Of a stretch of 64,000 nucleotides of DNA, positions 6,651 through 52,583 are shown piece by piece (within the stretch, counting starts at the first letter, position 1; each line of letters starts with the position of its first letter). Source of the stretch: Escherichia coli. GTDB lineage: Bacteria; Pseudomonadota; Gammaproteobacteria; Enterobacterales; Enterobacteriaceae. The notes beneath the pieces were generated by a model that saw only the letters and a program-made list of their open reading frames with translations, was not told the DNA's origin and ran no database searches. The translations under genes and the position numbers were made by a program. The stretch lies in NCBI RefSeq assembly GCF_013315695.1, contig NZ_CP054353.1; one strand, written 5' to 3'.

Positions 6651-7919
6651 ATGTTTATGGGGTGTGAGTGCATGGAAAAGAACTACAGAGTTACAACATT
6701 TGTCATGGATAGTGGCGAGCGCTATTGCATGGTAGTGGATCGTGCTTCTGGGCTTCCCATGTATTACCCCACTCTGTTTCTAACAACTCAAATCCGCAAT
6801 AGAGAGGATGCTTTTTCAACGATGTTGGCGGCGGCTAACAACCTGGTTATGTTGTTACGCTTTGTAGAGAGTCGCGACATTGACCTTGAGCAGCGGTTTT
6901 TGACCAAAGACTTCTTCAAGCCACATGAGCTGGATGATCTGCGAGATTTTGCTCAGTGCAAACAAAGAAAGGGGCCATTAACTGTGTCCTCTACCTCTTG
7001 GTTGGCCGATGCGATGACCGATATCGTTGATAACGGGACACAGCATTCCCGGCTAACAACGTTTGCCAACTATTTACACTGGTATGCGATGCATATCTTA
7101 AAGACGACAGAACTGGAAGTTGTCGAAAAGATCAATGCTATGGCGGCGCAGATAAAGACGCGCCGACCATCTAAAAAGCGCAGAAACCACGACTTACAAG
7201 ACAGGTCATTGAGTGATGTTCAATTGGACGCGCTATTTGAAGTCATCCAGCCTAGATCAGAGTTAAACCCTTTCTCAATAGATGTGCAGCGCCGCAATCG
7301 GCTGATGATCTTACTTCTGTTTTATCTTGGCATCCGAGGTGGTGAATTATTAAATATAAGAATACAGGACATAGATTTTAGCGCTAACAGGATCCGTATC
7401 GTTAGGAGAGCAGATGAACAAGCTGACTCTAGAACCAATGAGCCTAATGCTAAAACTAGAGAACGGCTCTTACCGTTGGCTGAATCCTTAGCTCAAGAAC
7501 TGCATAGTTATATCCTTCAAGATCGCCGGAAAGTCAGAAATGCGAAGAAAAATGACTATCTGTTTGTAACTTACAAGAGTGGACCAACTCTGGGAAATCC
7601 TATCTCCAAAGGGGGATATCATAAAATTTTTTCCGTAGTCAGGTCTATATCACCGCAATTGTATGCAGCGACAGGACATTCGCTCCGCCACACTTGGAAT
7701 CGCAAGTTTTCAGAAAGAATGGATGCCATGAATGAGCAAGTCAGCGAGGAACGCCAAGAGCAACTTCGTTCGTACTTAATGGGCTGGAGAGATGGCTCGG
7801 GAACCGCAGCGACTTACAACAAGCGTTTCATTCGGCAAAAAGGTTTTGAGGCCGCCTTGGCATTACAAGCAGGTAACGGCACTAGCTTGCCAGAGGACTT
7901 CAAGGATGACCATGAATAA
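6651..7919 (+). CDS. Tyrosine recombinase 1 of trio (integrase family, 422 aa; start may be the internal Met at 6672)
   Basis: Catalytic signature seen in translation: ...GIRGGELLNI... (Arg), HSLRHTW (His-x-x-Arg), LMGWRDGSGTAATYNKRF (Tyr nucleophile). Confidence 0.8.
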   Translation: MFMGCECMEKNYRVTTFVMDSGERYCMVVDRASGLPMYYPTLFLTTQIRNREDAFSTMLAAANNLVMLLRFVESRDIDLEQRFLTKDFFKPHELDDLRDFAQCKQRKGPLTVSSTSWLADAMTDIVDNGTQHSRLTTFANYLHWYAMHILKTTELEVVEKINAMAAQIKTRRPSKKRRNHDLQDRSLSDVQLDALFEVIQPRSELNPFSIDVQRRNRLMILLLFYLGIRGGELLNIRIQDIDFSANRIRIVRRADEQADSRTNEPNAKTRERLLPLAESLAQELHSYILQDRRKVRNAKKNDYLFVTYKSGPTLGNPISKGGYHKIFSVVRSISPQLYAATGHSLRHTWNRKFSERMDAMNEQVSEERQEQLRSYLMGWRDGSGTAATYNKRFIRQKGFEAALALQAGNGTSLPEDFKDDHE

Positions 7920-9444
7920 CCTCTTACTTGGGTTAGTACCAGAACGAATCCGTGCCAGGGCCAATGGCTACTCTTTTCTGTTGTATGACACATCGTGGAC
8001 ATTGGATAGAAATATCACTATTAATCTTGCTGATATTCACCATTACTTGTCAGATGGGACGCTAGATGGCTGCCTGCGTACACTGGCGTTTTATGCATCC
8101 AATCGTTCTTCTTCTCATACAAAAAATATTCTTGAACGGTTTCAGCACATGCTGCGTGAGACTGACGCGAGAGAAATTACTGATACGGTATTGATTAATT
8201 ATCGGTCGATGCTGTCGCCTGCAACAGAATGGTATCTAGCAACCATCCGTGGCTTTCTTCGATCCTGGCACGAACTGGGCTATCCCGGCATCAGTAAGGA
8301 GGTGAACCGCTTGCTAGATGGCTGGACGCTAAAGGGTAATCGTAAGGGGGATGCGGTTAAGCGCATGGATCCTCAAGAGGGGCCACTGACGGATAATGAG
8401 CTGACAGCGTTTAACGAGGGGGCTGTTCGGGCTTATGAAAAGAGCTTAATTACTATAGCTGAGTTGGCTATAGCACTTGGCACCAGTCATACAGGACGTC
8501 GTCCCATTCAGATCTCGCTGCTTCGTGTGGTCGATGTCCTTTGTGGTAAAAATGGAAAGGGAGAGCCCTTCTATGTGTTGAATGTGCCGCGAGCCAAGCA
8601 GCGCAGCAGCTCTTTCCGAATAAACTTCAAACCATTTGCAATATCACTGGAACTATGGGCAATCCTGAGTGCTCAGGCAAGAAATGCGATTGCGCAGGTT
8701 GAAAATCGTTTGGGGTTTGAATTGCAGGAAGATGACCGGCAGCAAATCCCTCTTTTTCCTGATCTTGATGTGTTAGATGCCGTCCAATCTCCTTATGAAT
8801 TCCGCCAACTGCATGCTACCGACAAACTCCACATTCCCGCCGCAGAGATAACCGACACCCTCCAATACATCGTAGAAAAGTCCGACATCCGGTCGGAACG
8901 TACCGGTGAGCTATTACATATCAATGCTCGTCGTTTTCGTTATACCACAGGCACACGAGCTGCCCGGGAAGGCTTTGGCGAGCTGGTGATTGCGGAACTG
9001 CTTGACCACGCGGACACCCAAAACGCAGGCGTTTACATCAAGAATATCCCCGAGCATGTGAAAAAGCTTGATGAGGCGGTTGGCTTCCAATTAGCACCAT
9101 ACGCTCAGGCCTTTGTCGGGGCACTTGTCGATTCAGAGAGAGACGCGCATCGAGGTAACGACCCTACCAGTCGTATTCGGACCGAAATGGGTCAGGGTGT
9201 TGGTACTTGTGGAGAACATGGCTTTTGTGGTGCCAATGTTCCTATTCCTTGCTACACCTGCATGCATTTCCAGCCTTGGCTGGACGGCCCACATGAAGAT
9301 GTCTATCAAGGACTGCTCAACGAACGTGAACGGGTGAAAGAGATAACTGGCGACATCCAGATTGCTGCCGTACTTGATCGCAGTATTATCGCGCTGGCAG
9401 ATGTGATCATGCGTTGTGCAAAACGTCGTGAAGAGCTTAGTTAA
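7906..9444 (+). CDS. Tyrosine recombinase 2 of trio (about 513 aa)
   Basis: C-terminal region with RRFRYTTGTRAAREG and LLDHADTQNAGVYI (R/H...Y pattern); ATG at 7906 or 7912 overlaps the upstream stop at 7917-7919. The ORF-track start at 7792 is rejected as an overlap artefact. Confidence 0.75.
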   Translation: MTMNNLLLGLVPERIRARANGYSFLLYDTSWTLDRNITINLADIHHYLSDGTLDGCLRTLAFYASNRSSSHTKNILERFQHMLRETDAREITDTVLINYRSMLSPATEWYLATIRGFLRSWHELGYPGISKEVNRLLDGWTLKGNRKGDAVKRMDPQEGPLTDNELTAFNEGAVRAYEKSLITIAELAIALGTSHTGRRPIQISLLRVVDVLCGKNGKGEPFYVLNVPRAKQRSSSFRINFKPFAISLELWAILSAQARNAIAQVENRLGFELQEDDRQQIPLFPDLDVLDAVQSPYEFRQLHATDKLHIPAAEITDTLQYIVEKSDIRSERTGELLHINARRFRYTTGTRAAREGFGELVIAELLDHADTQNAGVYIKNIPEHVKKLDEAVGFQLAPYAQAFVGALVDSERDAHRGNDPTSRIRTEMGQGVGTCGEHGFCGANVPIPCYTCMHFQPWLDGPHEDVYQGLLNERERVKEITGDIQIAAVLDRSIIALADVIMRCAKRREELS

Positions 9445-9460
9445 CAGGGAGCAATAACCA

Positions 9461-11494
9461 ATGGCTGAGATTTTCCTGTTTAAGCCAAAGGCTACGCTGA
9501 CAGCAGCAGAAAACCTTGAAGCATTCATATCCCAGTGCCGAGATCAATTGACTGTATTCGGCTCTGATCTCACTTGGGAAGATCCTGTTTGGCCAAACAT
9601 AACTGTATTTGCCAAGTTGGGCATTATTACGAGAAAACCCATACTGGAAGAGACGCAAGACCCTGCTTTCATTGATTTTGCCAAAGCCTATTTCCGTTAC
9701 CAGCAGGGGCATAGCCTCTCTAGGGCAAAGAATGAAAGTAAAGCCCTCCGTGCGGTTGAGGCGGCTTTGCTTCAAGTAAATGGAAACGCAAATATTGATG
9801 GCCTGTCGATTTCTGTGCTGGATGAAGCAGCTGAATTGGCAAAGCATTACTACTCCGATGGCTCCGCATATCATTGTGGCCGTGAGATTGAGCGGCTGGC
9901 TAAGTTTGTAGCTGAAAACCAGCTTGTATCAAGTGCTGTACAAAATTGGGTCAATCCAATTAAACGTGCAGAGGATAAGAACAAAACGAGCAGAAAGGCG
10001 AAGAAAAATAGGGAAGATAAACTTCCGAGTGATATTGCTCTTAATGCGTTGGCGGAAATTTTTGCCAACGACCCAATTCATGAGCGAGACATATTTACAA
10101 CATCGGTTTTTGCCATGTTGATGTCGGCACCTTCACGTATTACTGAGGTGTTAGCACTGCCTGTGGATTGCGAGGTTTTTGAAACGGATCGTGAAGGGAT
10201 AGAACGATATGGTTGGCGTTTTTTTGCGGGGAAAGGCTATGAGGGTGATATCAAATGGATACCCACCGTGATGGTCGGTATAGCTAAGACAGCCGTAGCT
10301 AGAGCTAGAGTGCTCTCTGAAAATGCACGACAACTGGCCAAGTGGATCGAGAAACACCCGAATAAGTTTTACCGCCATGCTAACTGTCCCAGTGTAGCCG
10401 ATGATGAGCCATTGACGATGAAGCAGGTTTGTATGGCGCTCGGTTTTGCACATTACTCTAAAAAGACGTGCAGGTCGTGTCTTGGTAATCGAGGTTTAGC
10501 TAAAGAGGATGGTGTACATACTCTAAATAGCCTGTGGCAGCACACAATGGCGCGTTTACCGGATGGCTTTCCGTGGTTTGATAAAGACAAGGGAATTAGG
10601 TACAGCAATGCCTTGTTTGTACTGAACGTAAATCAGTTCCACGGGAACAGAGGATGCATACCAGTTGAGTTACATAAGCCAACCAATAATTTCTTCAACA
10701 GTGATCTGACGCCTCGTCTGTCCTTGAAAGGAAAACATGCCAGTATCTTTGATCGCCATGGTTACCATGCTGTAAACGGAGAGCCGGTGAAATTAACCTC
10801 ACATCAGGCTCGACACCTGCTCAACACCATTATCCAGCGCGGTGGCCTGTCAAACTTGGAAATTGCCAAGTGGTCGGGGCGGGCAGATGTGAAACAGAAT
10901 CGAACTTACAACCACATGACTGAATACGAACTGGTTGGCATTGCTGAACGCCTTGATCCCACAACAGCGCTATTTGGGCCTGCTGGCGAGGTGGCAAAGC
11001 ATCTGCCCGTGACTATGCAGGAGTTCAATACCTTAGAGCATGCCGCAGTCCATGTGACGGAGTATGGCTACTGTGTGCATGATTACACCATGAGTCCTTG
11101 TGAGAAATTCCGAGATTGCGTCAATTGTACCGAACAGGTTTGCATCAAAGGCGATGATGCTGAAAAGTTGGATCGCATTAAGATACGTCTGGAGAAATTA
11201 GAGCGACTGTTTTTTCTTGCTGACGCAGCAGTGGAAAGTGGTGAGATAGGAACTGATCGCTGGTATCAGTACCACAAGAAAACTGTTACCCGGCTTCGTG
11301 AACTAGTGGCTATTTTAGAGAATCCAGACATTGAAAATGGTGTCCAGATTAAGCTCCGGGGCAATGATTTCAGCCAGCTTCGCCGTGTTGTCGCAAAGAC
11401 GTCTATTGTGGCCATCGAGCAAAAAGGCAAAGAAAGTGAAGAAGCTGTGATGTTAGATGATTTGACAACTTTGTTAGGAGGTGGCCTTGGCTAA
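9461..11494 (+). CDS. Tyrosine recombinase 3 of trio (677 aa)
   Basis: LTSHQARHLLNT (H-x-x-R-H) and WSGRADVKQNRTYNHM (Tyr) motifs; RBS-like cagggag 8 nt upstream of ATG. Confidence 0.75.
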   Translation: MAEIFLFKPKATLTAAENLEAFISQCRDQLTVFGSDLTWEDPVWPNITVFAKLGIITRKPILEETQDPAFIDFAKAYFRYQQGHSLSRAKNESKALRAVEAALLQVNGNANIDGLSISVLDEAAELAKHYYSDGSAYHCGREIERLAKFVAENQLVSSAVQNWVNPIKRAEDKNKTSRKAKKNREDKLPSDIALNALAEIFANDPIHERDIFTTSVFAMLMSAPSRITEVLALPVDCEVFETDREGIERYGWRFFAGKGYEGDIKWIPTVMVGIAKTAVARARVLSENARQLAKWIEKHPNKFYRHANCPSVADDEPLTMKQVCMALGFAHYSKKTCRSCLGNRGLAKEDGVHTLNSLWQHTMARLPDGFPWFDKDKGIRYSNALFVLNVNQFHGNRGCIPVELHKPTNNFFNSDLTPRLSLKGKHASIFDRHGYHAVNGEPVKLTSHQARHLLNTIIQRGGLSNLEIAKWSGRADVKQNRTYNHMTEYELVGIAERLDPTTALFGPAGEVAKHLPVTMQEFNTLEHAAVHVTEYGYCVHDYTMSPCEKFRDCVNCTEQVCIKGDDAEKLDRIKIRLEKLERLFFLADAAVESGEIGTDRWYQYHKKTVTRLRELVAILENPDIENGVQIKLRGNDFSQLRRVVAKTSIVAIEQKGKESEEAVMLDDLTTLLGGGLG

Positions 11495-11906
11495 GCATCT
11501 GGACAATAGAGACATTAACGCCATCGTAAATCTAATTCGAGGATGGAAGGAACCAAAACTGTCCTGGTCAGCAATTTGTGAGGCGGCAGAACCATTGGTC
11601 GGAAAGTTGCCGTCAAGACAGTCCCTTAATGCACATGAGGCAATAGTGACTGCCTATCAAACAAAGAAAGAGGCGCTTAAAGGCCGTGGCCCCAAAAATC
11701 CGCGTCCAGCTAGTTTGAACATTGCAGCCGCGAGGATTGTGAATCTTGAAAGCGAAATCGAAGAGCTTAAGGAAGAGAACCGGAGGTACAAACAACAGTT
11801 TGTGATCTGGCAATACAATGCATACAAATATGGAATGACAGAACATCAACTTAATGCGCAGCTGACAAAGATTGACCGTGAGCGCTCTGATGGAGAAAGA
11901 AGATAG
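11481..11906 (+). CDS. Small protein (about 140 aa) coupled to recombinase 3; possible ginD-like accessory factor
   Basis: ORF overlaps the 3' end of recombinase 3 (GTG 11481 or TTG 11487 just after aggagg); C-terminal half has coiled-coil character (LESEIEELKEENRRYKQQ). Function not recognisable. Confidence 0.5.
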   Translation: MALAKHLDNRDINAIVNLIRGWKEPKLSWSAICEAAEPLVGKLPSRQSLNAHEAIVTAYQTKKEALKGRGPKNPRPASLNIAAARIVNLESEIEELKEENRRYKQQFVIWQYNAYKYGMTEHQLNAQLTKIDRERSDGERR

Positions 11907-11981
11907 TTGCTGAGTACGATATCGAGGGTACATTTCTCTGTGTAGGGGTAGTTATTTACAAAAAAATAGGAGAATAATTAA

Positions 11982-14900
11982 ATGGTCAAACCAAACTGGG
12001 ATAACTTTAAAGCTAAATTTAGTGAGAATCCTCAAGGTAATTTTGAGTGGTTTTGCTACTTGTTGTTCTGTCAAGAATTCAAAATGCCCGCAGGTATATT
12101 TAGATATAAGAATCAATCTGGTATCGAAACTAATCCAATAACCAAAGATAATGAAATTATCGGTTGGCAATCTAAATTCTATGACACAAAATTGTCGGAT
12201 AACAAAGCTGATCTTATAGAAATGATTGAGAAAAGCAAAAAGGCTTATCCAGGATTAAGTAAAATCATTTTCTATACTAATCAAGAGTGGGGGCAGGGGA
12301 GAAAGTCCCATGAACCTGAAGGCGATAAGAACGCTGATAATTATTTGGAAACTGTCGGAAATAGTAACGATCCCAAAATAAAAATTGAAGTTGATCAGAA
12401 AGCATATGAGTCGGGTATCGAAATAGTATGGAGAGTTGCTAGTTTTTTTGAATCACCGTTTGTAATAGTTGAGAATGAAAAGATTGCTAAACATTTCTTC
12501 TCCCTTAATGAAAGCATCTTTGATTTATTAGAAGAAAAGCGCAAGCACACAGAAAATGTTTTATATGAAATTCAAACCAATATAGAGTTCAAAGACAGAA
12601 GTATTGAAATTGACAGACGACATTGTATAGAACTTCTACATGAGAATCTAGTTCAGAAAAAAATTGTCATCGTCAGCGGAGAAGGTGGGGTTGGAAAAAC
12701 AGCAGTTATCAAAAAAATTTATGAAGCAGAAAAACAATACACTCCTTTCTATGTCTTTAAGGCTAGCGAGTTTAAAAAGGACAGTATTAATGAGCTATTC
12801 GGTGCGCATGGCTTAGACGATTTCTCTAATGCTCATCAAGACGAATTACGTAAAGTCATAGTCGTAGATTCTGCTGAAAAGCTTTTAGAACTGACCAATA
12901 TCGATCCTTTTAAAGAATTCCTGACTGTTTTAATAAAGGATAAATGGCAGGTTGTTTTCACAACCCGTAACAACTACTTGGCAGATCTGAACTATGCTTT
13001 CATAGATATTTATAATATAACTCCTGGAAACTTAGTAATAAAGAACCTTGAACGCGGCGAGCTAATAGAGTTATCTGATAACAATGGATTTAGCCTTCCT
13101 CAAGATGTTCGATTATTAGAACTAATCAAAAATCCATTTTATCTAAGTGAATATTTGAGGTTCTATACCGGTGAAAGCATCGATTATGTGAGCTTCAAAG
13201 AAAAGCTTTGGAATAAGATTATTGTCAAAAATAAACCTTCTCGGGAGCAGTGTTTCTTAGCGACTGCTTTTCAGCGGGCTAGTGAGGGCCAATTTTTTGT
13301 CTCCCCGGCATGTGATACTGGAATTTTAGATGAGTTAGTTAAAGACGGAATTGTCGGCTATGAAGCTGCTGGTTACTTCATTACACATGATATATACGAG
13401 GAATGGGCATTAGAAAAGAAAATTTCTGTCGATTATATCCGTAAAGCGAACAATAACGAGTTCTTCGAAAAAATAGGAGAATCACTTCCTGTTCGCCGTA
13501 GTTTTCGGAATTGGATATCTGAACGATTGCTTTTAGATGACCAGTCCATAAAGCCTTTTATCGCAGAAATAGTCTGTGGAGAAGGAATATCAAATTTTTG
13601 GAAAGACGAGTTATGGGTAGCTGTCCTTCTTTCCGATAATTCAAGCATATTTTTTAATTACTTTAAAAGATATTTACTTAGTAGTGACCAGAATCTATTA
13701 AAAAGACTTACTTTCTTATTGAGGCTTGCTTGCAAGGACGTTGATTACGATCTGCTTAAACAGTTAGGTGTAAGTAATTCAGATCTGCTTTCCATTAAAT
13801 ATGTTCTTACTAAGCCTAAGGGAACTGGTTGGCAGAGTGTGATCCAATTTATCTATGAAAATTTAGATGAAATAGGGATCAGAAATATTAATTTTATACT
13901 TCCTGTGATTCAGGAGTGGAATCAAAGAAACAAAGTGGGTGAAACGACTCGATTATCTAGTTTGATAGCCCTAAAATATTATCAATGGACTGTAGATGAG
14001 GATGTCTATTTATCCGGAAGGGATAATGAGAAAAATATTCTGCATACGATTCTTCATGGGGCGGCCATGATTAAACCTGAAATGGAAGAGGTTTTAGTTA
14101 AGGTTCTTAAAAATAGGTGGAACGAGCACGGTACCCCATATTTCGACCTTATGACCTTAATCCTTACTGACTTAGATTCATATCCGGTTTGGGCATCTCT
14201 CCCGGAATATGTTCTACAATTGGCAGATCTGTTCTGGTATCGGCCACTTAAAGAAACAGGCGAACGTTATCACAGTATGGATATTGAAGATGAGTTCGGT
14301 CTATTTAGGTCTCATCACGACTATTATCCAGAAAGTCCATATCAGACTCCTATATATTGGTTACTACAATCACAGTTCAAAAAAACAATAGACTTTATTC
14401 TTGATTTTACGAACAAGACAACGATATGTTTTGCCCACTCCCATTTTGCTAAAAACGAAATTGAAGAAGTCGATGTCTTTATTGAAGAAGGAAAGTTTAT
14501 AAAGCAATATATATGCAATCGTCTGTGGTGCTCATATCGAGGAACACAGGTCTCTACCTACTTACTTTCATCAATTCATATGGCATTGGAAAAATTTTTT
14601 CTTGAGAATTTTAAAAATGCAGACTCGAAAGTGTTGGAAAGTTGGCTTCTTTTCTTGTTAAGAAATACCAAGTCAGCTTCTATTTCTGCAGTAGTTACGA
14701 GTATTGTACTTGCATTCCCTGAGAAGACATTCAATGTAGCTAAAGTACTATTCCAAACAAAGGATTTCTTCCGTTTTGATATGAATCGAATGGTTCTAGA
14801 CAGAACACATAAAAGTTCATTAATCTCCCTCAGGGATGGCTTTGGCGGTACAGATTACAGAAACTCTTTGCACGAAGAAGATAGAATTAAAGCTTGCGAT

Positions 14901-16745
14901 GATGTGCATAGAAATACTTATCTTGAAAATCTTGCCTTGCATTATCAAATTTTCAGGAGTGAAAATGTAACGGAGAAAGATGTCATTGAAAGGCAACAAG
15001 TGCTCTGGGGTATTTTCGATAAATACTATAATCAGCTTCCAGATGAAGCTCAAGAAACTGAAGCCGATAAGACGTGGAGGCTCTGCTTGGCAAGAATGGA
15101 TCGGCGAAAGATGAAAATAACTACCAAGGAGAAAGATGAAGGGATTGAGATATCATTCAATCCTGAGATTGACCCTAAACTAAAGCAATATAGTGAGGAA
15201 GCAATAAAGAAAAACTCCGAGCATATGAAGTATGTAACGCTGAAACTATGGGCAAGCTATAAAAGAGAAAAGGATGAACGTTATAAGAATTATGGAATGT
15301 ATGAGGACAATCCGCAAATTGCTTTACAAGAGACCAAAGAAATAATAAAAAAGCTTAATGAGGAAGGGGGTGAAGATTTCAGACTATTAAATGGTAATAT
15401 ACCAGCAGACGTTTGTTCTGTATTACTGTTAGATTACTTTAATCAGTTGAATAATGAAGAGAGAGAATATTGTAAAGATATTGTTCTAGCATATTCTCAA
15501 CTTCCGTTGAAGGAAGGCTATAATTATCAGGTACAAGATGGGACAACCTCGGCAATTTCAGCCTTACCCGTGATTTATCATAATTATCCAATGGAAAGGG
15601 AGACTATAAAAACAATATTACTTTTGACACTGTTTAATGACCACTCTATTGGAATGGCAGGTGGGCGCTACTCAGTATTTCCTAGTATGGTGATTCATAA
15701 ATTATGGCTAGACTATTTTGATGATATGCAGTCTCTATTGTTTGGTTTTTTGATTTTAAAGCCAAAGTATGTAATTCTTTCAAGAAAAATCATTCATGAA
15801 AGTTATCGTCAAGTAGACTATGACATTAAAAAAATAAATATTAATAAGGTGTTTTTAAATAACTATAAGCATTGCATATCAAATGTCATCGATAATAAAA
15901 TATCTATAGATGATTTGGGAAGTATAGATATAGTTGATCTACATATTTTGAACACAGCTTTCCAATTAATTCCAGTTGATACTGTTAATATTGAACATAA
16001 GCAATTGGTTTCCTTAATTGTTAAAAGATTTTCTACAAGCCTATTGTCAAGTGTTCGAGAAGATAGAGTTGATTACGCTCTTCGGCAGTCTTTCTTGGAA
16101 AGATTTGCCTACTTTACGCTTCATGCGCCCGTGAGCGATATTCCCGATTATATAAAACCTTTTCTTGATGGTTTCAACGGTTCAGAGCCTATTTCAGAGT
16201 TATTTAAAAAATTTATTCTCGTCGAAGATAGATTAAATACTTACGCCAAATTTTGGAAGGTTTGGGATTTGTTTTTTGATAAAGTGGTTACTTTGTGCAA
16301 GGATGGAGATAGGTATTGGTATGTAGATAAAATTATAAAAAGTTACCTTTTTGCTGAATCTCCATGGAAAGAAAACTCTAATGGTTGGCACACATTTAAA
16401 GATAGCAATAGTCAATTCTTTTGCGATGTATCTAGGACTATGGGCCATTGCCCTTCAACTTTATATTCTCTTGCCAAATCTTTGAATAACATTGCCAGTT
16501 GCTATCTTAATCAAGGTATAACCTGGCTTTCAGAAATGTTGTCGGTTAATAAAAAGCTATGGGAAAAGAAATTGGAAAATGATACTGTTTATTTTTTAGA
16601 ATGTTTGGTTAGGCGGTATATTAACACTGAGCGTGAGCGAATTAGACGAACCAAACAGTTGAAAGAAGAGGTCTTAGTAATATTGGATTTTTTGGTAGAG
16701 AAAGGATCTGTTGTTGGTTATATGTCACGGGAAAATATTCTGTGA
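11982..16745 (+). CDS. Large STAND-type P-loop NTPase (1587 aa): N-terminal unknown domain (about 1-220), NTPase core (about 225-330), about 1250-aa helical C-terminal region; candidate anti-phage (Avs-like) protein
   Basis: Strong RBS (aggag, 9-nt spacer). Walker A GEGGVGKT (aa 233-240), Walker B VIVVDSAE (aa 292-299), TTR motif in QVVFTTRN (aa 323-330) typical of STAND NTPases. Very AT-rich codon usage; no transmembrane or secretion signals noticed. Confidence 0.8.
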   Translation: MVKPNWDNFKAKFSENPQGNFEWFCYLLFCQEFKMPAGIFRYKNQSGIETNPITKDNEIIGWQSKFYDTKLSDNKADLIEMIEKSKKAYPGLSKIIFYTNQEWGQGRKSHEPEGDKNADNYLETVGNSNDPKIKIEVDQKAYESGIEIVWRVASFFESPFVIVENEKIAKHFFSLNESIFDLLEEKRKHTENVLYEIQTNIEFKDRSIEIDRRHCIELLHENLVQKKIVIVSGEGGVGKTAVIKKIYEAEKQYTPFYVFKASEFKKDSINELFGAHGLDDFSNAHQDELRKVIVVDSAEKLLELTNIDPFKEFLTVLIKDKWQVVFTTRNNYLADLNYAFIDIYNITPGNLVIKNLERGELIELSDNNGFSLPQDVRLLELIKNPFYLSEYLRFYTGESIDYVSFKEKLWNKIIVKNKPSREQCFLATAFQRASEGQFFVSPACDTGILDELVKDGIVGYEAAGYFITHDIYEEWALEKKISVDYIRKANNNEFFEKIGESLPVRRSFRNWISERLLLDDQSIKPFIAEIVCGEGISNFWKDELWVAVLLSDNSSIFFNYFKRYLLSSDQNLLKRLTFLLRLACKDVDYDLLKQLGVSNSDLLSIKYVLTKPKGTGWQSVIQFIYENLDEIGIRNINFILPVIQEWNQRNKVGETTRLSSLIALKYYQWTVDEDVYLSGRDNEKNILHTILHGAAMIKPEMEEVLVKVLKNRWNEHGTPYFDLMTLILTDLDSYPVWASLPEYVLQLADLFWYRPLKETGERYHSMDIEDEFGLFRSHHDYYPESPYQTPIYWLLQSQFKKTIDFILDFTNKTTICFAHSHFAKNEIEEVDVFIEEGKFIKQYICNRLWCSYRGTQVSTYLLSSIHMALEKFFLENFKNADSKVLESWLLFLLRNTKSASISAVVTSIVLAFPEKTFNVAKVLFQTKDFFRFDMNRMVLDRTHKSSLISLRDGFGGTDYRNSLHEEDRIKACDDVHRNTYLENLALHYQIFRSENVTEKDVIERQQVLWGIFDKYYNQLPDEAQETEADKTWRLCLARMDRRKMKITTKEKDEGIEISFNPEIDPKLKQYSEEAIKKNSEHMKYVTLKLWASYKREKDERYKNYGMYEDNPQIALQETKEIIKKLNEEGGEDFRLLNGNIPADVCSVLLLDYFNQLNNEEREYCKDIVLAYSQLPLKEGYNYQVQDGTTSAISALPVIYHNYPMERETIKTILLLTLFNDHSIGMAGGRYSVFPSMVIHKLWLDYFDDMQSLLFGFLILKPKYVILSRKIIHESYRQVDYDIKKININKVFLNNYKHCISNVIDNKISIDDLGSIDIVDLHILNTAFQLIPVDTVNIEHKQLVSLIVKRFSTSLLSSVREDRVDYALRQSFLERFAYFTLHAPVSDIPDYIKPFLDGFNGSEPISELFKKFILVEDRLNTYAKFWKVWDLFFDKVVTLCKDGDRYWYVDKIIKSYLFAESPWKENSNGWHTFKDSNSQFFCDVSRTMGHCPSTLYSLAKSLNNIASCYLNQGITWLSEMLSVNKKLWEKKLENDTVYFLECLVRRYINTERERIRRTKQLKEEVLVILDFLVEKGSVVGYMSRENIL

Positions 16746-16790
16746 TGTAGTTGAAAATAATAATTTTAATGAGAGCTTTTCCAATTTAGG

Positions 16791-16815
16791 CTCCAGGGAT
16801 TGGAGCCTTTTTATT
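16791..16815 (+). terminator. Intrinsic terminator after the large NTPase gene
   Basis: Hairpin ggctccaggg-a-ttggagcc followed by tttttatt. Confidence 0.6.
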
Positions 16816-16840
16816 ATCGAAAAGATTAATATCTTATAAG

Positions 16841-17059
16841 TCAATCAGTAAAACGCAGCAAAGCTCGTTGCTCTTGAATGTTCACTCCGTGATAAATTCT
16901 TTGATTACCACATAAATAACAAGAACAAGCACAAGGGGTGCAGTAAATTTTCCCTACAACTTTTTCAGTTTTAGCCAACGCAATTCGATATGTTTTTCTC
17001 TTAGATTTTAACCGAGATATATGATGACGACGCCATGCCCGATTTCTAACCATTTCCAT
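16841..17059 (-). CDS. Small basic Cys-rich hypothetical protein (72 aa)
   Basis: ORF with GGAG-type RBS; Arg/Lys-rich N-terminus and a CTPCACSCYLCG cysteine cluster (possible zinc ribbon). No family recognised. Confidence 0.3.
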   Translation of the reverse strand: MEMVRNRAWRRHHISRLKSKRKTYRIALAKTEKVVGKIYCTPCACSCYLCGNQRIYHGVNIQEQRALLRFTD

Positions 17060-17283
17060 TCACTCCAATTTTCTACCGCGGTGTTATACCGCGCCCGTAT
17101 CAATCTTTGGAGTTCGATATCGATCTGACCTTTCATGAATACCTCGGAATTTATCAATAAAGTGAGTGCTATATCATAGCTTATGGGATGAAAGTTTGAT
17201 ATTTAGCACTTTTCAGCTTTAGGTAAAGCTGTCCTCAATAAAGCTAATTTCTTGTTTATTAATGGAATTTCTATGTGGAAGTG

Positions 17284-18105
17284 TTAGAAATCCTGTTTTA
17301 CTTTATCCATCGTTAAAACTTTACTTATTATATAAGGATCATAATTTCTTATACTCATAAGGCAATTTATCAAATTGGAAACGTGGCTATCATCAGGTAT
17401 AAGTATATATTTAATATCATCGAAAGAAAAACCAATGCCAAATTCAGAGAATTTTTTACTTAAGACGGCCTTCTGGTTAGGTTCCACCACTCGCTCTAAA
17501 TTTAGGCTAGGCCATAAATCGCCAACAAACGGATGCGGTACATATCTCCATTCTTTTTCGTCAGCGTAGATATAATTCTCAATGGTTTTTTCGTTCGTCC
17601 TTTCTAATTTCCCTTTATAATTTTTCATATAGCGTAATAAATTATAAAGGTCAGCGTACTCTTCTTTAAGGCTTTCAAAATACTTACGCTCTTTATTATC
17701 AAGGATATGCCTTTTCGACCATAGCGGAATTAACGCATCCTTTAGTTTTCTAATTCTTTTATTATACTTTGAAAATAATTCACTGCCTTGATTCATGTAT
17801 AGAACGGGATGGAGATCATTTTTCTCAGCCCATTCTTTTGTTAACCCAAATCCAAATTCACCATATTTTCCACTATGATCTTTAATCTGAGAAAGCTTGA
17901 TGTCACAGAATGAAACCATTGGTACTGCGAAATTTCTTCTTCCTTTTACTCCGACTATGCGTTCACGGGCAAGAAATGGTTTAAAATAGAGTTCTGTTAA
18001 AATGCTATAGAATGCCTCTTCATTTTTAGTAAAGTGAAACAACGTTGTTGGATGTAAACTATTAACTGCTTGTATAACTGTTTCTTGGTTTTCTATAGCA
18101 CTCAT
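17284..18105 (-). CDS. AbiGi-like abortive-infection family protein (273 aa)
   Basis: N-terminal LFHFTKNEEAFYSILTE... resembles, by recall, the FHFT-type N-terminus of AbiGi-family proteins; AT-rich; convergent with the NTPase gene. Confidence 0.55.
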   Translation of the reverse strand: MSAIENQETVIQAVNSLHPTTLFHFTKNEEAFYSILTELYFKPFLARERIVGVKGRRNFAVPMVSFCDIKLSQIKDHSGKYGEFGFGLTKEWAEKNDLHPVLYMNQGSELFSKYNKRIRKLKDALIPLWSKRHILDNKERKYFESLKEEYADLYNLLRYMKNYKGKLERTNEKTIENYIYADEKEWRYVPHPFVGDLWPSLNLERVVEPNQKAVLSKKFSEFGIGFSFDDIKYILIPDDSHVSNLINCLMSIRNYDPYIISKVLTMDKVKQDF

Positions 18106-23618: not shown

Positions 23619-25044
23619 TAATGCCAGTCAGTTAAGCAACTGACTGGCTCTTTTTCGGGGCTGTGGGGTATTTCCAGGGCCTCTCCTTTACCACTCTCGG
23701 GAAGGCCCTTTCCCTTCTTGTCGGTAATTTCACAAGTTGTCCCATACTTGCAAGATCGCGCATCAGCTCCGGTATACGTCCCGGTGAAGCGCCCTGCAAT
23801 GTCATCAGCATTCTCATCACCATTCCGCATGATTCTGAGAAACTCAGTTGATTCGGCCAGTAACCTTTCAGATGTTCCGCCATTTTAATCATCTGATATC
23901 TCACCAGATTATAAGCCAGTAAGACACCCCACAGCTCTTGCTCCACAAGCTCCGGTTTTTTACTTCTCAGCGTCAGCCTGCTCAGTTGCATCGTCTGTTT
24001 TATCTCCCTGTATCCCAGTTCGATTTCCCAGCGATGACTGTACAGATCCGCCATTTCTCCTCCGGGGAAGCGCATGGCGTCCGTCATCGACGTCAGCAGA
24101 TGGCAGACTTTTCCTTTGCGCGTCACGGTCAGCAGGCGGGCTGTCACTTCATTTCCCAGTCCCGGCCACTTTTTTCGTGCCTGCGGGCTGGTTTTCAGCT
24201 TCACCAGATGATCGCCTTTACCCAGTTTTCTGATCTCTTCATATTGCGCTCCCTTTCTGAGAGGTATCATCCAGTGGCGGTGTTCTCCCGCCAGGCTCCA
24301 GGCATTTAACAGTCCCAGTGAGTAATAACCTTTATCCATTAACGTCAGAGTGTTATCGCCGGTTTGTTCTATAAGTTGCTCAGCAAGCTCATTTTCGCTG
24401 TTCTTCATCGTGCCGAAGGCTGCAGCCGTCAGCAGATGGCTGGTCAGTTCCATCTGGCAGACCATTTTGACCTGCGGGTAGAGCGCCGGGTTCCCGGCAT
24501 GTGTCTGGCGGGGGAAGGCTGCATCGTTCTCTGGTGTATCCGGTGTGCGCCAGAACACACCATCGATGGCCAGCAGGGTCAGGCCGCACCAGTGCGGATG
24601 CGGCGTGGCGTTATGCCAGAGCTGCGCTGTTTTCGTGAACACGCGGCGGACAGCCTCACTTCCCAGGCGCTGGCGGGCCTGAATAACGGCACTGGGGGCA
24701 ACGAAGGGGCGATTGCCCGGCAGCATGATGTCCAGGCGATTCACAATCTGGTGAAGAGGTTCTTTACGCTCAAGCGCCATGCCAACAATACACCAGACCA
24801 TCATTTCGAGGGGAAGACGGCGCTTGCGTAGCGTTACAGTACCTGATTCGGCAAGGCAACGAGAGATGAGTTCGGGGTCGAGGTAATCCCCCAGAGAAGT
24901 CAGTGGGTTACGCAGAGAATCGTAACGGGATACCAGATCAAGAGCCTGTCCAATGTGCATAAAAAAATCCGGAAACAAGTGAGCGTTTCCGGATTCTTAC
25001 ACAGCCACTGGATCGGTCAACTGATCCTTAACTGATCGGCATTA
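23619..25044 (-). mobile_element. Insertion sequence IS4, complete (1426 bp)
   Basis: Terminal inverted repeats TAATGCCAGTCAGTTAAG (left) and CTTAACTGATCGGCATTA (right, 16/18 match); length 1426 bp equals canonical IS4; single transposase ORF. Confidence 0.9.
23632..24978 (-). CDS. insG: IS4 transposase (DDE family, 448-aa ORF)
   Basis: ORF fills the IS; translation recognised as IS4 transposase by recall. Confidence 0.88.
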
Positions 25045-40332: not shown

Positions 40333-42480
40333 TTACGCCAGTGCCGCTTCGCGCAGGCGAGTTTTCAACTTGTTGTACTCGTCAATCACGTACTGCTCGG
40401 CGGCGCGCTGATCGGCGATCGGCTCGACGCGCACGGCGCAGTATTTGTATTCCGGCGTTTTCGTAATCGGGCTTAAGTTTTCGGTAACCAGCTCGTTACA
40501 GGCACCAATCCACCACTGGTAGGTCATGTAAATCGCCCCTTTGTTCGGACGATCGCTGACCTGCGCACGGGTGATAATTTTGCCTTTACGCGAGTGCACC
40601 CAAACCAATGCCTCATCTTCAATACCCAGACGTTTGGCGTCTTCGGTATTGATTTGTGCGTAGCCAGGTTCATCAGCCAGCGCCGCCAGTGCCGCACAGT
40701 TACCGGTCATCGAACGGCAAGAGTAGTGACCAACTTCACGCACCGTTGACAGTACCATCGGATACTCGTCGGTGAGTTTGTCGATTGGCGCTACCCAGTC
40801 GCAGGTGAAGAACTGCGCCAGACCGTTCGGGGTATCAAACTTCTCTTTAAACAGATAAGAAGTCCCCTGATCGGCATCTGAAGTATCGCGGCAAGGCCAC
40901 TGAATGAAGCCCAGTTCGCCCATTTTCTCGTAAGTCGCACCGTAGAAATCCGGGCACAGATGACGCAACTCATCCCAGATCTCCTGGGTGTTGTTGTAGT
41001 GCATCGGATAACCCATACGGGTGGCGATTTCACTGATGATTTGCCAGTCCGTTTTCAAATCCCATTTCGGTTCAACTGCTTTAAAGAAACGCTGGAAGCC
41101 ACGGTCAGCCGCAGTAAACACGCCTTCATGCTCGCCCCATGACGTTGACGGTAAAATGACATCCGCCGCCGACGCGGTTTTGGTCATAAAGATGTCCTGA
41201 ACGATGACCAGTTCCAGATCTTCAAAGGCTTTACGTACTGCCGACAGCTCCGCGTCAGTTTGTAGCGGATCTTCGCCCATAATGTACGCGGCACGCACTT
41301 CACCATGCTCTGCGCGGTGCGGCAGCTCGCTGATGCGATAACCGGTATGAGCGGGCAGGCTTTCCACGCCCCAGGCTTTGGCGAATTTCTCGCGGTTAGC
41401 CGGATCTTTCACATACTGGTATCCCGGATACGTATCCGGCAGCGCGCCCATATCGCAGGCACCCTGCACGTTGTTCTGACCACGAACCGGGTTTACACCC
41501 GCATGCGGCTTACCGAGGTTACCAGTCAGCATCGCGAGGCTGGTCAGAGAACGCACGGTTTCCACGCCCTGGTAGAACTGGGTTACACCCATGCCCCACA
41601 GGATGGCGGCGCTTTTCGCCTGGGCATACATCCGCGCCGCCTGACGAATCTCACTGGCGCTGACGCCGGTGATATCTTCAACCGACTCCGGCGTGTAGCC
41701 TTCAACGATTTTACGATACTCTTCAAAGCCTTCTGTACGGGAAGCGACGAACGCTTTGTCGTACAGATTTTCTTCAATAATGACATGGCCCATCGCATTC
41801 AACAGCGCGATGTTCGAGCCGTTTTTCAATGCAATGTGCATGTCAGCAATGCGCGCAGTTTCAATTTTGCGCGGATCGCAGACGATAATTTTCGCCCCGT
41901 TACGTTTAGCGTTAATTACGTGATTCGCCACGATTGGGTGGGAATCCGCCGGGTTATACCCGAAAACGAACACTAAATCGGTATTATCAATTTCGTTAAT
42001 AGCATTGCTCATTGCGCCATTACCGACCGATTGGTGCAGACCTGCAACCGATGGGCCGTGTCAGACACGAGCGCAGCAGTCAACGTTATTGGTACCAATA
42101 ACGGCGCGCGCAAATTTTTGCATTACATAGTTGGTTTCGTTACCCGTACCACGCGAGGAGCCGGTCGTCTGGATGGCATCCGGACCGTACTTCTCTTTGA
42201 TGGCGCTCAGGCGCTCGGCAACGTAATTCAGTGCCTCATCCCAGGAAACAGGTTCGAGTTTGCCGCCACGCTGGCGACGGATCATGGGGGTTTTCAGGCG
42301 CGGGGTCAGGATCTGGGTATCGTTAATGAAGTCCCAGCCATAATAACCCTTCAGACACAGGGTACCCTGGTTGGTTTTCCCCTGCGCTGCCTCCGCCCGG
42401 ACGATTTTGCCGTTATCGACGACCAGGTTGATTTTGCAACCTGATGCGCAATAGGGGCAAACCGTGACGACTTTTTTCAT
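40333..42480 (-). CDS. fdhF: Formate dehydrogenase H, selenoprotein (715 aa; in-frame UGA at 42058-42060 decoded as selenocysteine)
   Basis: Two ORF-track segments (42061-42480 and 40333-42012) are in the same frame and separated only by TGA; N-terminus MKKVVTVCPYCASGCKINLVV...; SECIS-like hairpin immediately 3' of the UGA. Confidence 0.95.
42010..42057 (-). other. SECIS element (selenocysteine insertion hairpin) within the fdhF mRNA
   Basis: mRNA sense reads UGA CAC GGC CCA UCG GUU GCA GGU CUG CAC CAA UCG GUC GGU AAU; matches the fdhF SECIS stem-loop by recall. Confidence 0.75.
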
Positions 42481-47517: not shown

Positions 47518-47725
47518 ATTAAATACATCCTGTCTGCTGCGAACAATATCTGTAGTGAATATCAATATCCATTGAAGGCGTCAGTATGGCTATTTTCTCG
47601 ATGAATAAAAATAGCTTTATTCAGCCACCGCATTCATAACTTATATATTTTATTTATTAATTGTCTGTATATATTTTTAAAATAAATGCTTTTGGGGGCT
47701 TCAGCGCCCCCAAAAGCGAGTGGCA

Positions 47726-49711
47726 TTAATTTGGGGTTACGATATTCACCCACAAATCGAAATTATCCAGACAGGCAATAATTTCTTCCAGTTTTGCGCC
47801 ATTGCCAATAATTTTGGCTTTCTTCGCCTTTACCAGATCCGCCATTTTGGCTTGTCCGACCAGCACGTCGTGCAGATCGCTGCGGCTCATGTAAAACGAT
47901 GCGTCTACCTTCGGTTGCAGTACTTTACGGTAGTTCAATACGCTATTGTTGAGTGAGAGGTTCAGGTTATCGTTGTCAGAGAGATTGAAGTTCAGGCTGA
48001 TGGATTTGCCCGCGGCTTTCTCACTGTTCAGACGAACAGCCATGTAATCAAGCAGCATCTCGACGGTCATACCCTTGATGGTGTCAGGAGAGGCGGTGCT
48101 GGCGTGTTCGATTTTCTTCGCGCCCTCACGCAGTTCTTTCGCTCCCGTCAGGTAGAAGCCGCGCCAGGTGGCTGATTCGGCCTGATAACCCAATTGTTCG
48201 AAGGTATCGGCCTGTAGGTTTTTCGCCACCTGGTCTCCCGGATTGGCAGCAATCACCTGTTTCAGCAGTTCAGAGGCCCAGCGGTAGTCGCCCTGGTTAT
48301 AGGCTTCACGCGCCAGATTGATAGCATGTGCGGAACCTCCCAGCGCTTTGACATAACGTTTACCCATATCGACCTGGCCATACGGATTCAGGTTTGCTGG
48401 GTTACCGTCGTAGTAGCCGAGGTAAAAGTTATATACCGCGCGAGCGTTATGACTGACGGAGCCATAATAGCCACGGCTGGCCCAGTTTTTATCCAGCGTT
48501 TCCGGCAGATGAATCATGTTGCCGATTTCATTCATGGTGTAACCCTGGTTCGCCAGGTGCAGGGTCTGGTCGTGAATATACTTAATGGTGTCGCGATATT
48601 TTCCAATATAATCATTGATATGTTGATTACCCCATACTGGCCAGGTATGTGGCATAAACAGCACTTCTGCTTGTGATCCCCACTTATCCAGCGTTTCATT
48701 CAGGTAATCGGTCCACTTCGCGGTATCACGGGTTTTCGCGCCACGCAGGGTGTAGAAGTTATGCAGGGTATGGGTGCTGTTTTCCGCTGTGCACAGGGCT
48801 TTCAACGCCGGAATATAGAGGTGCATTTCAGACGGCGCTTCGCTGCCTGGAGCCATCAGGAATTCGAAATCCAGCCCGTCGATATTGAGTTTCTCTCCTG
48901 TCTTGGTGATAGATCGCGTCGGCGCGATAATTGTCGGGCCGCCGGTAGTAAGCGTAACACCCAGCCCGTTGCCGATATCTCCCTGTGCATTATGCGGGAG
49001 TAGCAGGCCGTAAGAGTAAAATGCACGGCGACTCATGATATTACCCGCCAGCACGTTTTCACTGATGGCTTCGTCCATAAAGCCTGCCGGGGCGATGATC
49101 TGCACTTTGCCTGCTTTTACATCGGCTTCTGAGACAATACCTTTTACGCCGCCATAGTGGTCAGTGTGGCTGTGGGTGTAGATAACGGCCACAATCGGTT
49201 TTTGTGGGCGGTGTTTGAAATAGAGATCAAGGCTGGCTTTTGCTGCATTTGGCGTCACCAGCGGGTCAATGACGATGATGCCCGTATCACCTTCAATGAA
49301 GGTGATGTTCGAGATATCCTGGCTGCGCACCTGATACATGCGGTCGGTGACTTTAAACAGGCCAGAAATGCCGTTGATCTGCGACTGACGCTACAGGCTT
49401 GGGTTAACGGTTTCGGGCGCGGGCGCATTGATATCAAATTTATAATCTTCTCCGAGATAATATGGTTTGCCATTAGCATCGCGCAGAATACCTTCATCCA
49501 GCAGCGGAGCGATAAATCCACGCTGAGCATCGTCAAAATCCTGACGATCGCTAAACGGTAATGATTTGGCGTAATTCTGATTAACCTGTTGGGTATATTG
49601 AGTGGCGGCTTTCGCTTCATCTGTTGCGTTAGCGGTATTTACCATCATGCCGCTGGCGGCAGTTAACGCAATAACAATCCTGCTCAAACGGAATAACCGA
49701 GAGTTATTCAT
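47726..49711 (-). pseudogene. yjcS: Alkyl/aryl-sulfatase family (MBL-fold) yjcS interrupted by an in-frame TAG at 49391-49393
   Basis: ORFs 49391-49723 and 47726-49339 are in the same frame; direct translation across the gap gives ...[31 protein letters not shown]...; MBL motif [11 protein letters not shown] is downstream of the stop. Confidence 0.8.
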
Positions 49712-49983
49712 ATAAATCTCCATTTATCATTTATGTCGTAAATATGTAATCCATGCAAAATACGTCATTTGAAGCTGGCGTTATCATAATTGGGAATTTG
49801 CGATTTTAATAAGTGGAAGTGTGAGCGGAACGCGCCATTTTATTAGGCATTTGTGCTGAAGAGGGGAAATTACAGTAGAACTATCATTGCTGAAAATAAT
49901 ATGAGCTGTTTTATGTGTTTATTATATATATTGTACTTGTCGTTGGCACAGCGGGACATTGCGTTACGGTGCCAACGCTTTAC

Positions 49984-51602: not shown

Positions 51603-52583
51603 TTACTTACTGATAAGACGGTCAAGGGCGACAGCCGCGATAATTAATCCGCCCATCACCACCAGTTGGTAATAGGTTTGTACCTGCAAAATATTCAGAC
51701 CGTTGTTGATGGTGCCGATGATCAACCCGCCAATCACCACAGAGAAAATGCGCCCCTTGCCGCCGAAGAAACTGGTGCCGCCAATGATGGCGCTGGCAAT
51801 GGCATAGGTTTCAAAACCCATACCGGCAAGCGGTTCTGCGGCACCGAGTCGTGCAGTTGAGACGACGCCTGCCAGACCTGCACAAACACCGGAGATGATA
51901 AACACCACCAGGATGTGGAATTTCACGTCAATCCCGGAATAGAACGCCGAGTTTTTGTTGCCGCCCAGTGCGTAGATGTTGCGTCCGAGCCGCATACGCG
52001 TTGTCAGAAACCAAAGGATGAGCGCGACAATTAGCGAGAAGATAACGGGAACAGGTATCCCAATTACGCTGGCGGCAAAGAAGTTCACGAAGTCAAATTA
52101 GAAGCCGTATACCGAGTTGGCATCGGAGATCACCAGCGTGATCCCACGGAAAATAGCGTTGGTACCAAGGGTGATAATAAATGGGTGTAGCCCCGTCCAG
52201 TTGACCAGGCAGCCGTTGATCGCCCCCAGTGCACCGCCAACCAGTACACCGCCAATCAGCGCCGCGAGAAACGGGTCAACACCTGCCAACATCAGTTTGG
52301 CGGTCACCATACCGGAAAGCGCCAGAATCGCGCCAACCGAGAGGTCGATACCAGCGACCAGGATAGCGAAAAACTCGCCCATGCCGATCAATACCGTCAC
52401 GGAGCTTTGCACAAAAATCTGGGTAATATTATTGGTGGTCAGAAAATATTCTGGTGACAGCGAACCAAAGATGGCGACGATGATCGCCAGGATAAAAAAG
52501 GTGCCGTATTTATCCCAGAACAGCGCAAAGTTGAACGGTTTCTTCTCGCTCGCTTCGCTTTTTACTCGTGTGGTAAAGCCCAT
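51603..52583 (-). pseudogene. alsC: D-allose ABC transporter permease alsC interrupted by an in-frame TAA at 52098-52100
   Basis: ORFs 52098-52583 and 51603-52088 are in the same frame; translation reads ...SDANSVYGF*FDFVNFFAASVIG...; total span equals 326 codons, as expected for AlsC. Confidence 0.8.

Follow-up and report, generated by a model that had tools for sequence, protein, structure and literature searches.

The yjcS gene of this Escherichia coli genome is almost certainly a lineage-specific pseudogene, in which the tryptophan codon at position 107 changed from TGG to TAG in the ancestor of a now-widespread clone. The gene occupies positions 47726-49711 on the minus strand of the window (the whole stretch of 64,000 nucleotides that was analysed); its translation gives 661 codons and a terminal TAA with exactly one internal stop, an amber codon at 49391..49393 (minus strand), which stands in the context AAC CCA AGC CTG TAG CGT CAG (NPSL*RQSQ). 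An earlier note had placed this TAG about 106 codons into the gene, and translation together with a direct reading of the DNA fixes it as codon 107. The note had also described two flanking reading frames that lie in one frame and together span the expected length of about 661 aa; this is borne out by the 661 codons and by the list of open reading frames, in which both frames flanking the TAG are in register and no frameshift is found in yjcS. Its reading of the lesion as a point nonsense mutation that makes the gene a pseudogene is likewise supported, by the one G→A change described below and by PGAP, which calls the gene pseudo. The location is that of yjcS in K-12 (b4083), with alsK on one side (upstream) and ytcA-mdtNOP on the other (downstream). 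The lesion is already known as such: RefSeq annotates a pseudogene, and earlier GenBank records show a split gene.

The stop leaves two remnants of very different content. The N-terminal one (49394..49711, minus strand; 106 codons from the annotated start at 49711) consists of the signal-peptide-like leader and about 77 further residues and contains no catalytic residues; in the list of reading frames it appears as 49391..49723, with 110 aa counted from an upstream ATG and 106 aa from the start at 49711. The C-terminal one (47726..49339, minus strand; 537 codons from Met125) contains the HSHTDH motif and all three Pfam domains, and has no leader peptide. A Pfam search of the conceptual translation, in which codon 107 had been repaired, gives Lactamase_B (residues 132-355, 3e-23), Alkyl_sulf_dimr (392-530, 5e-56) and Alkyl_sulf_C (539-660, 4e-38), and the repaired protein thus has the three-domain architecture of type III alkylsulfatases, with a metallo-beta-lactamase (MBL) domain, a dimerisation domain and an SCP2-like C-terminal domain. 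It matches over its full length the PDB entries 4PDX (K-12 YjcS, E=0), 4NUR (PSdsA, 4e-212), 2YHE (Pisa1, 1e-181) and 2CFU (SdsA1, 2.5e-180), and its HSHTDH motif, which is of the binuclear-zinc HxHxDH type, aligns with those of 4PDX, 4NUR and 7TL5. In an NCBIfam scan of the repaired protein no model passed its curated threshold, the matches being weak and to generic MBL models, and the assignment to the family is accordingly based on Pfam and PDB. With the reading frame, the PGAP call and these matches taken together, 47726..49711 (minus strand) is best described as a pseudogene of a type III metallo-beta-lactamase-fold alkyl/aryl-sulfatase. Codon 107 precedes the HSHTDH motif and every one of the Pfam domains, so that the frame an active enzyme would need is interrupted ahead of them all; judged from its sequence, the locus is a member of the family by descent that would encode no functional member.

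The closest characterised relative is K-12 YjcS (annotated as 'linear primary-alkylsulfatase'), which shares with the window gene its position, its 661 codons, its three domains and its HSHTDH motif, and which reads NPSLWRQSQ around the site of the stop. Unlike the window gene it is intact, and since the window has a minority haplotype (discussed below), identity between the two alleles amounts to no more than 83% at the nucleotide level and 87% at the amino-acid level. The K-12 enzyme is described as an SDS-active alkylsulfatase (Liang et al., 2014, Protein Sci 23:1442, as relayed in passages of PMC9426430 and PMC6107682). SdsA1 of Pseudomonas aeruginosa (2CFU) and Pisa1 (2YHE) resemble YjcS in their homology over the full length, with E values of about 1e-180, and in their combination of MBL, dimerisation and SCP2-like domains; they differ from the window gene in being distant homologues from other genera, and intact, characterised enzymes. 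For Pisa1, the relevant passage of PMC6107682 gives secondary alkyl sulfates as the substrates.

The ancestral state of codon 107 can be read from the closest intact alleles, those of SMS-3-5, MS 21-1 and AF14, which all have TGG (Trp). Of the two ancestors that had been guessed beforehand, TGG or CAG, this comparison of orthologous codons singles out TGG, and the stop therefore arose by one transition, which is G→A when read on the coding strand and C→T at 49392 when read on the plus strand. Since SMS-3-5, which serves as the outgroup, has TGG, TAG is the derived state. The tryptophan lies in a motif, NPS[L/F]WRQ, that is invariant across 14 enterobacterial sequences and the structures 4PDX, 4NUR and 7TL5; a conserved sense codon has thus been replaced by a stop, as is characteristic of a nonsense pseudogene. 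A second change in the same gene, R86L (codon 86, CGC→CTC, 49454..49456, minus strand), emerged from the comparison of alleles as specific to the same clade; it also affects a residue, Arg86, that is invariant in all intact orthologues examined.

An in-frame stop inside a long conserved reading frame need not be a lesion, and the window itself holds another instance, the UGA at codon 140 of fdhF (42061-42063), which we take to be a programmed selenocysteine codon at the known Sec position. The two cases are alike in this outward respect and differ in their distribution: the fdhF coding sequence with its UGA is annotated as intact in every genome examined, whereas a stop at codon 107 of yjcS is not conserved across orthologues, as it would be in recoding of the selenocysteine or pyrrolysine type, every other allele examined having TGG. 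Confined to one clade and replacing an invariant tryptophan, the UAG of yjcS is a mutation and not a recoding signal.

The same allele is found in independent genomes. The window yjcS (1,986 nt) is identical, TAG and R86L included, to the gene in two complete genomes, MSB1_4I (Australia, rectal swab; NZ_LR898874.1, JMX41_RS24010) and AF3 (UK, blood culture; NZ_OZ547117.1, AC9VVF_RS20060), both of which PGAP labels 'alkyl/aryl-sulfatase, pseudo, internal stop'. These two pseudogenes agree with the window in the gene itself, in its neighbours (alsK, ytcA-mdtNOP) and in a companion TAA in alsC. In the 24 kb that were compared, 2 SNPs separate the window from MSB1_4I and 4 separate it from AF3, at different positions and all outside yjcS; the window is thus a third independent sequence. 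Against their nearest relatives with TGG, MS 21-1 and AF14, the three carriers share seven differences in this 24-kb region: yjcS W107*, yjcS R86L, alsC S162*, one synonymous change each in mdtO, phnJ and phnI, and one intergenic change. The lesion is therefore heritable, belongs to one clade and is absent from its sister lineages.

The truncated products extend this distribution much further. Across NCBI, JGI/IMG, ENA and Logan, the exact 106-aa product occurs on 716 contigs and the exact 537-aa product on 530; the latter is found in 1,048 collection blocks, which include another 5.3-Mb chromosome and one metagenome assembly, both with the same succession of alsK, the 106-aa frame, the 537-aa frame and ytcA. 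In the E. coli strains KTE69 and KTE143 the 106-aa fragment is recorded as a 'hypothetical protein', and the two fragments of yjcS bear consecutive protein accessions, ELF13732.1 and ELF13733.1. The TAG is a fixed marker of a widespread clone. These observations also dispose of the idea that the stop is an error of sequencing or assembly and that the true genome has a sense codon at this place, a general possibility that arose when only a single sequence was at hand. The identical base in two complete genomes sequenced independently on different continents, the slightly different third sequence in the window, and the wide record of the truncated products (716 and 530 contigs, 1,048 blocks, a metagenome assembly among them) exclude such an error for all practical purposes.

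The gene had been called a pseudogene with the proviso that the strain carries no amber suppressor, and screening for alleles of the supE/supF type had been proposed; such a screen was run, and it found none in the clone-mate genomes. The window contains no tRNA gene in its 64 kb, and K-12 tRNA genes with their anticodons changed to the suppressor form were used as queries against all 5,426 complete E. coli genomes, MSB1_4I and AF3 included. The screen covers, for the clone-mates, ten families of tRNA genes in their classical single-step suppressor forms, with tyrU, the gltT family, leuZ and serT lying outside it. As a positive control, supE (glnV-CUA) was recovered at 100% identity in 155 genomes, and the 40 matches listed are laboratory strains of the K-12 type (C600, DH5α, DH1, J53), which shows that the search method works. 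Because the matches listed do not cover all 155 genomes, the glnX-metT cluster of MSB1_4I was read directly; glnV and glnX have the anticodon CUG and glnU and glnW the anticodon UUG, all wild type, which leaves no supE or supB allele there. Among the 5,426 genomes, supF (tyrT/V-CUA) and trpT-CUA were each found in none, and supD (serU-CUA) in one, DSM 498, which is unrelated to the clone. For supP (leuX-CUA) there was no full-length match in the 5,426 genomes, the best full-length sequence reaching 98.8% identity; seven matches in the band of at least 99% are partial only and were rejected as supP alleles. Ochre alleles were worth including because the stop in alsC of the clade is a TAA, so that both genes could be read by one and the same ochre suppressor; Tyr-UUA and Lys-UUA were each found in none of the 5,426 genomes.

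It is thus exceedingly unlikely that full-length YjcS is still made with the help of a suppressor tRNA, be it an amber suppressor or an ochre one that reads both the UAG of yjcS and the UAA of alsC. Such a tRNA would account for the presence of a TAG and a TAA within 3 kb of each other in one clade, and natural coliform isolates with amber suppressors have reportedly been found (Marshall & Levy 1980). Against it stand the wild-type glnV, glnX, glnU and glnW of MSB1_4I, the confinement of supD to DSM 498 in a search that recovers supE, and the absence of the other suppressor forms that were searched for; moreover, the UAG of yjcS is followed by C, which is a poor context for suppression, and the replacement of the invariant Arg86 fits a gene that is no longer under selection. 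The amber alleles of laboratory strains, which are read by supE44 or supF, resemble yjcS in having an in-frame UAG in place of a sense codon, and differ from it in the suppressor that accompanies them, the tRNA with a CUA anticodon that marks a suppressed amber allele having no counterpart in the clone-mates among the alleles tested. With no decoding mechanism for the stop among the classical amber and ochre alleles in the clone-mates, the UAG of yjcS is expected to terminate translation.

In the pseudogene, the ribosome would accordingly stop after 106 residues and release the export leader with the roughly 77 residues that follow it. This fragment would comprise none of the zinc-binding, dimerisation and SCP2-like domains, and so no periplasmic alkyl-sulfatase (SDS hydrolase) is predicted to be made. 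It could be argued that the allele is hypomorphic and not null, with a low level of near-cognate read-through at UAG-C or re-initiation at Met125, the more so as the C-terminal frame is fully open over 537 codons and retains all its domains, and termination at UAG-C is comparatively weak in E. coli. We consider this very unlikely. No Shine-Dalgarno-like sequence precedes any of the in-frame restart codons Met125, Val128, Val152 and Val174; the 20 nucleotides upstream of Met125, TGTTTAAAGTCACCGACCGC, contain no GGAG-like motif. A product restarted there would be without the export leader and about 95 N-terminal residues of the mature protein, for an enzyme that is periplasmic, and in wild-type E. 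coli read-through does not usually exceed 1%. A trace of near-cognate read-through may occur; in so small an amount it would not restore normal expression. That the downstream frame is still open is explained by the youth of the mutation, as seen in the seven differences specific to the clade over 24 kb.

Effects of the stop beyond yjcS are not expected. Nine nucleotides past the yjcS stop codon begins a hairpin resembling an intrinsic terminator (47688..47717, minus strand), which a consensus scan identified by its 12-bp stem with eight G-C pairs and its T-rich tail. With so strong a predicted terminator at its end, yjcS is probably monocistronic, and polarity of the TAG on ytcA-mdtNOP, which was considered for mdtNOP, was rejected on this ground. 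A candidate sigma-70 promoter lies at the other end of the gene, in the intergenic region between alsK and yjcS (49921..49949, minus strand), where GTGCCA and TATAAT are separated by a 17-nt spacer and match the consensus at 10/12 positions; the scanned region has 3 promoter-like sites, where shuffled sequence averages 5.1.

The allele in which the stop arose is itself unusual. Binned identity delimits a divergent block of a minority haplotype within yjcS (47777..49625, minus strand), with the TAG inside it: per bin of 150-200 nt the nucleotide identity of the block to the K-12 allele is 74-91%, as against 95-100% for the ends of the gene and its flanks. In bins of 200 bp the divergence from K-12 is sharply bounded and covers the interior of the gene, with 74-88% identity from about 47800 to 49600. 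Identity to the window allele reaches 95% or more in the yjcS of 179 of 5,358 genomes and lies at 80-90% in that of 5,175, while the surrounding 24 kb are 95-99% identical in most genomes. Between the window and K-12, codons 36-640 show a dS of 0.87 and a dN of 0.085 (dN/dS 0.10), against a dS of 0.03-0.10 for the ends of yjcS and for the neighbouring alsK and mdtN. Both haplotypes have thus been under purifying selection, from which it follows that the TAG represents the recent loss of a previously functional gene.

A search among the GTDB species representatives found no donor of the block, the best matches being 88-89% identical in amino acids overall and 92-93% in the core. These core values are those to Pseudocitrobacter, against 87% to the majority form of Escherichia, and in a neighbour-joining tree the window YjcS groups with Pseudocitrobacter. 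A match in Kluyvera was set aside, its span not being divisible by three and so giving no clean translation. When yjcS is divided into bins of 150 nt, its opening bin and its final 36 nt are E. coli-like (98-100%); between nt 301 and 1650, Pseudocitrobacter (84-95%) is nearer than the Escherichia alleles in seven of nine bins, consistently from about nt 750 onwards, and the remaining two are about tied or slightly E. coli-like. This mosaic fits the homologous replacement of a gene-sized segment by that of a Pseudocitrobacter-like donor, or else a very old polymorphism.

The preferred reading of the stop itself is the simple one, in which the TAG has been inherited vertically and would act as neutral or tolerated gene decay. 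It has to be weighed against adaptive loss, that is, against the view that the inactivation of yjcS and alsC was selected in a human-associated clone and did not come about by drift. In favour of selection, the carriers have in alsC an independent TCA→TAA change (S162*), and the six coding SNPs specific to the clade in the 24 kb comprise two nonsense changes, three synonymous ones and a single missense change, R86L, which again falls in yjcS and is damaging. As substitutions that create a stop make up about 3.0-3.5% of all those possible in these genes, the unconditional probability of at least two nonsense changes among six coding SNPs is about 0.012-0.016. Losses in related strains point in the same direction: alsA is independently frameshifted in the sister strain MS 21-1, N-terminal fragments of yjcS that end at other positions are known from E. 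coli and Shigella, the gene survives in S. diarizonae as a decayed remnant, and the lineage with the allele is present on hundreds of contigs. The region was, however, chosen for already having a stop, and conditional on this first stop the probability of one more nonsense change among the other five SNPs is 0.14-0.16; the enrichment is therefore not significant, and nonsense enrichment in the clade was rejected after this correction for ascertainment. On the branch leading to the carriers, yjcS itself has W107* and one replacement (Arg86) and no synonymous change, numbers too small for a test. Recurrent decay, too, is equally expected of a dispensable gene, and for yjcS and als, as dispensable accessory functions, it is what is expected. 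We thus regard adaptive loss as improbable, and tolerated decay as the reading to be preferred. The remnant in S. diarizonae had separately been considered as a parallel fragment, through its match to residues 1-106; it has its own stop at codon 46 and was discarded as an unrelated decayed remnant.

The import and the loss may be joined in one scenario, in which an interior segment of yjcS of about 1.8 kb came from a Pseudocitrobacter-related donor, was maintained under purifying selection (dN/dS of about 0.1) and was later lost together with alsC, the paired losses having been selected and not due to drift. Taken as a whole, this is a doubtful proposition; if true, it would mean that a globally distributed, human-associated clone had adaptively discarded a periplasmic alkyl-sulfatase and its uptake of allose.

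Under tolerated decay, yjcS is one more routine pseudogene in a natural E. coli clone and of little importance in itself, and its Pseudocitrobacter-like haplotype is of somewhat more evolutionary interest than its stop codon. Isolates of the clone are predicted to be without YjcS-dependent hydrolysis of SDS and other alkyl sulfates and without allose uptake, and the combination of the TAG with R86L and alsC S162* provides a handy marker that defines the clade. The case also illustrates how quickly sister genomes and an anticodon screen can resolve a lone in-frame stop when the gene around it is conserved. In MSB1_4I an IS4 transposase is annotated with an 'internal stop'; the window has an open frame there and lacks this stop.

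E. coli yjcS is dimorphic, and the allele in the window is the minority haplotype among the 5,358 genomes compared: 179 of these carry a gene that matches it at 95% identity or more; in 5,175 the identity is 80-90%. The divergence is confined to a gene-sized block in the interior of yjcS (47777-49625), where dS is 0.87 and dN/dS 0.10, against a dS of 0.03-0.10 in the flanks. The core of the window gene is 92-93% identical at the amino acid level to Pseudocitrobacter yjcS, but 87% to the majority form of Escherichia; a Pseudocitrobacter-like core within a block the size of the gene thus suggests that this block arose by inter-genus homologous replacement. The actual donor was not found among the GTDB species representatives. 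The GTDB representative genome of E. coli itself appears to carry a further yjcS allele, with a core 92.9% identical to K-12 in amino acids.

Inactivated copies of yjcS also occur elsewhere. E. coli and Shigella boydii contigs the size of a chromosome encode short N-terminal YjcS fragments (P0018, P0019, P0025, P0029); their end points differ and some have frameshift-like tails, which indicates that the gene was inactivated independently in other lineages. In S. enterica subsp. diarizonae CCUG 30040T (L033 3001-3315), yjcS is reduced to about 100 N-terminal codons, with a stop inside at codon 46 and unrelated sequence beyond; it is a remnant that decayed independently, and the equal length of its 106-residue match and the window fragment is a chance agreement, not a parallel.

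In a search of 5,426 complete E. coli genomes with K-12 tRNA genes whose anticodons had been altered, 155 carried the supE44-type glnV-CUA allele and none a supF, Tyr-UUA, Lys-UUA or trpT-CUA allele. All of the 40 glnV-CUA genomes listed (of the 155) are K-12 laboratory-type strains, although several bear host labels, Homo sapiens, mouse gut and oil palm among them; the suppressor tRNA has no PGAP annotation (feature 'none' at the match).

Loss in the clade extends to the als operon, where alsC, the D-allose ABC permease gene, carries an independent ochre mutation at codon 162 (TCA→TAA; 52098-52100, minus strand), common to the window, MSB1_4I and AF3 and flagged by PGAP as 'internal stop'. 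The sister strain MS 21-1 has a frameshift in alsA instead, and the operon is thus undergoing repeated loss in this group. The in-frame TGA at codon 140 of fdhF (…DCCARV*HGPSVA…; 42061-42063, minus strand) is not a lesion but a legitimately recoded stop, the long-established selenocysteine codon of formate dehydrogenase H.

Between yjcE and ghxP, an IS4 transposase (23632-24978, minus strand) has a frame that is open throughout in the window, but its MSB1_4I counterpart bears the flag 'pseudo, internal stop'; either the two sequences may differ here or the flag may be an artefact of annotation, caused by an extended 5' boundary. The interval from yjcB to ssb (about 6672-18105) holds a defence or integrative island; as annotated in MSB1_4I, whose genome is nearly identical, this encodes an AbiGi-family protein and has a 4.76-kb gene for Avs4 (AVAST type 4), two tyrosine recombinase/integrase genes and a pair of hypothetical genes.
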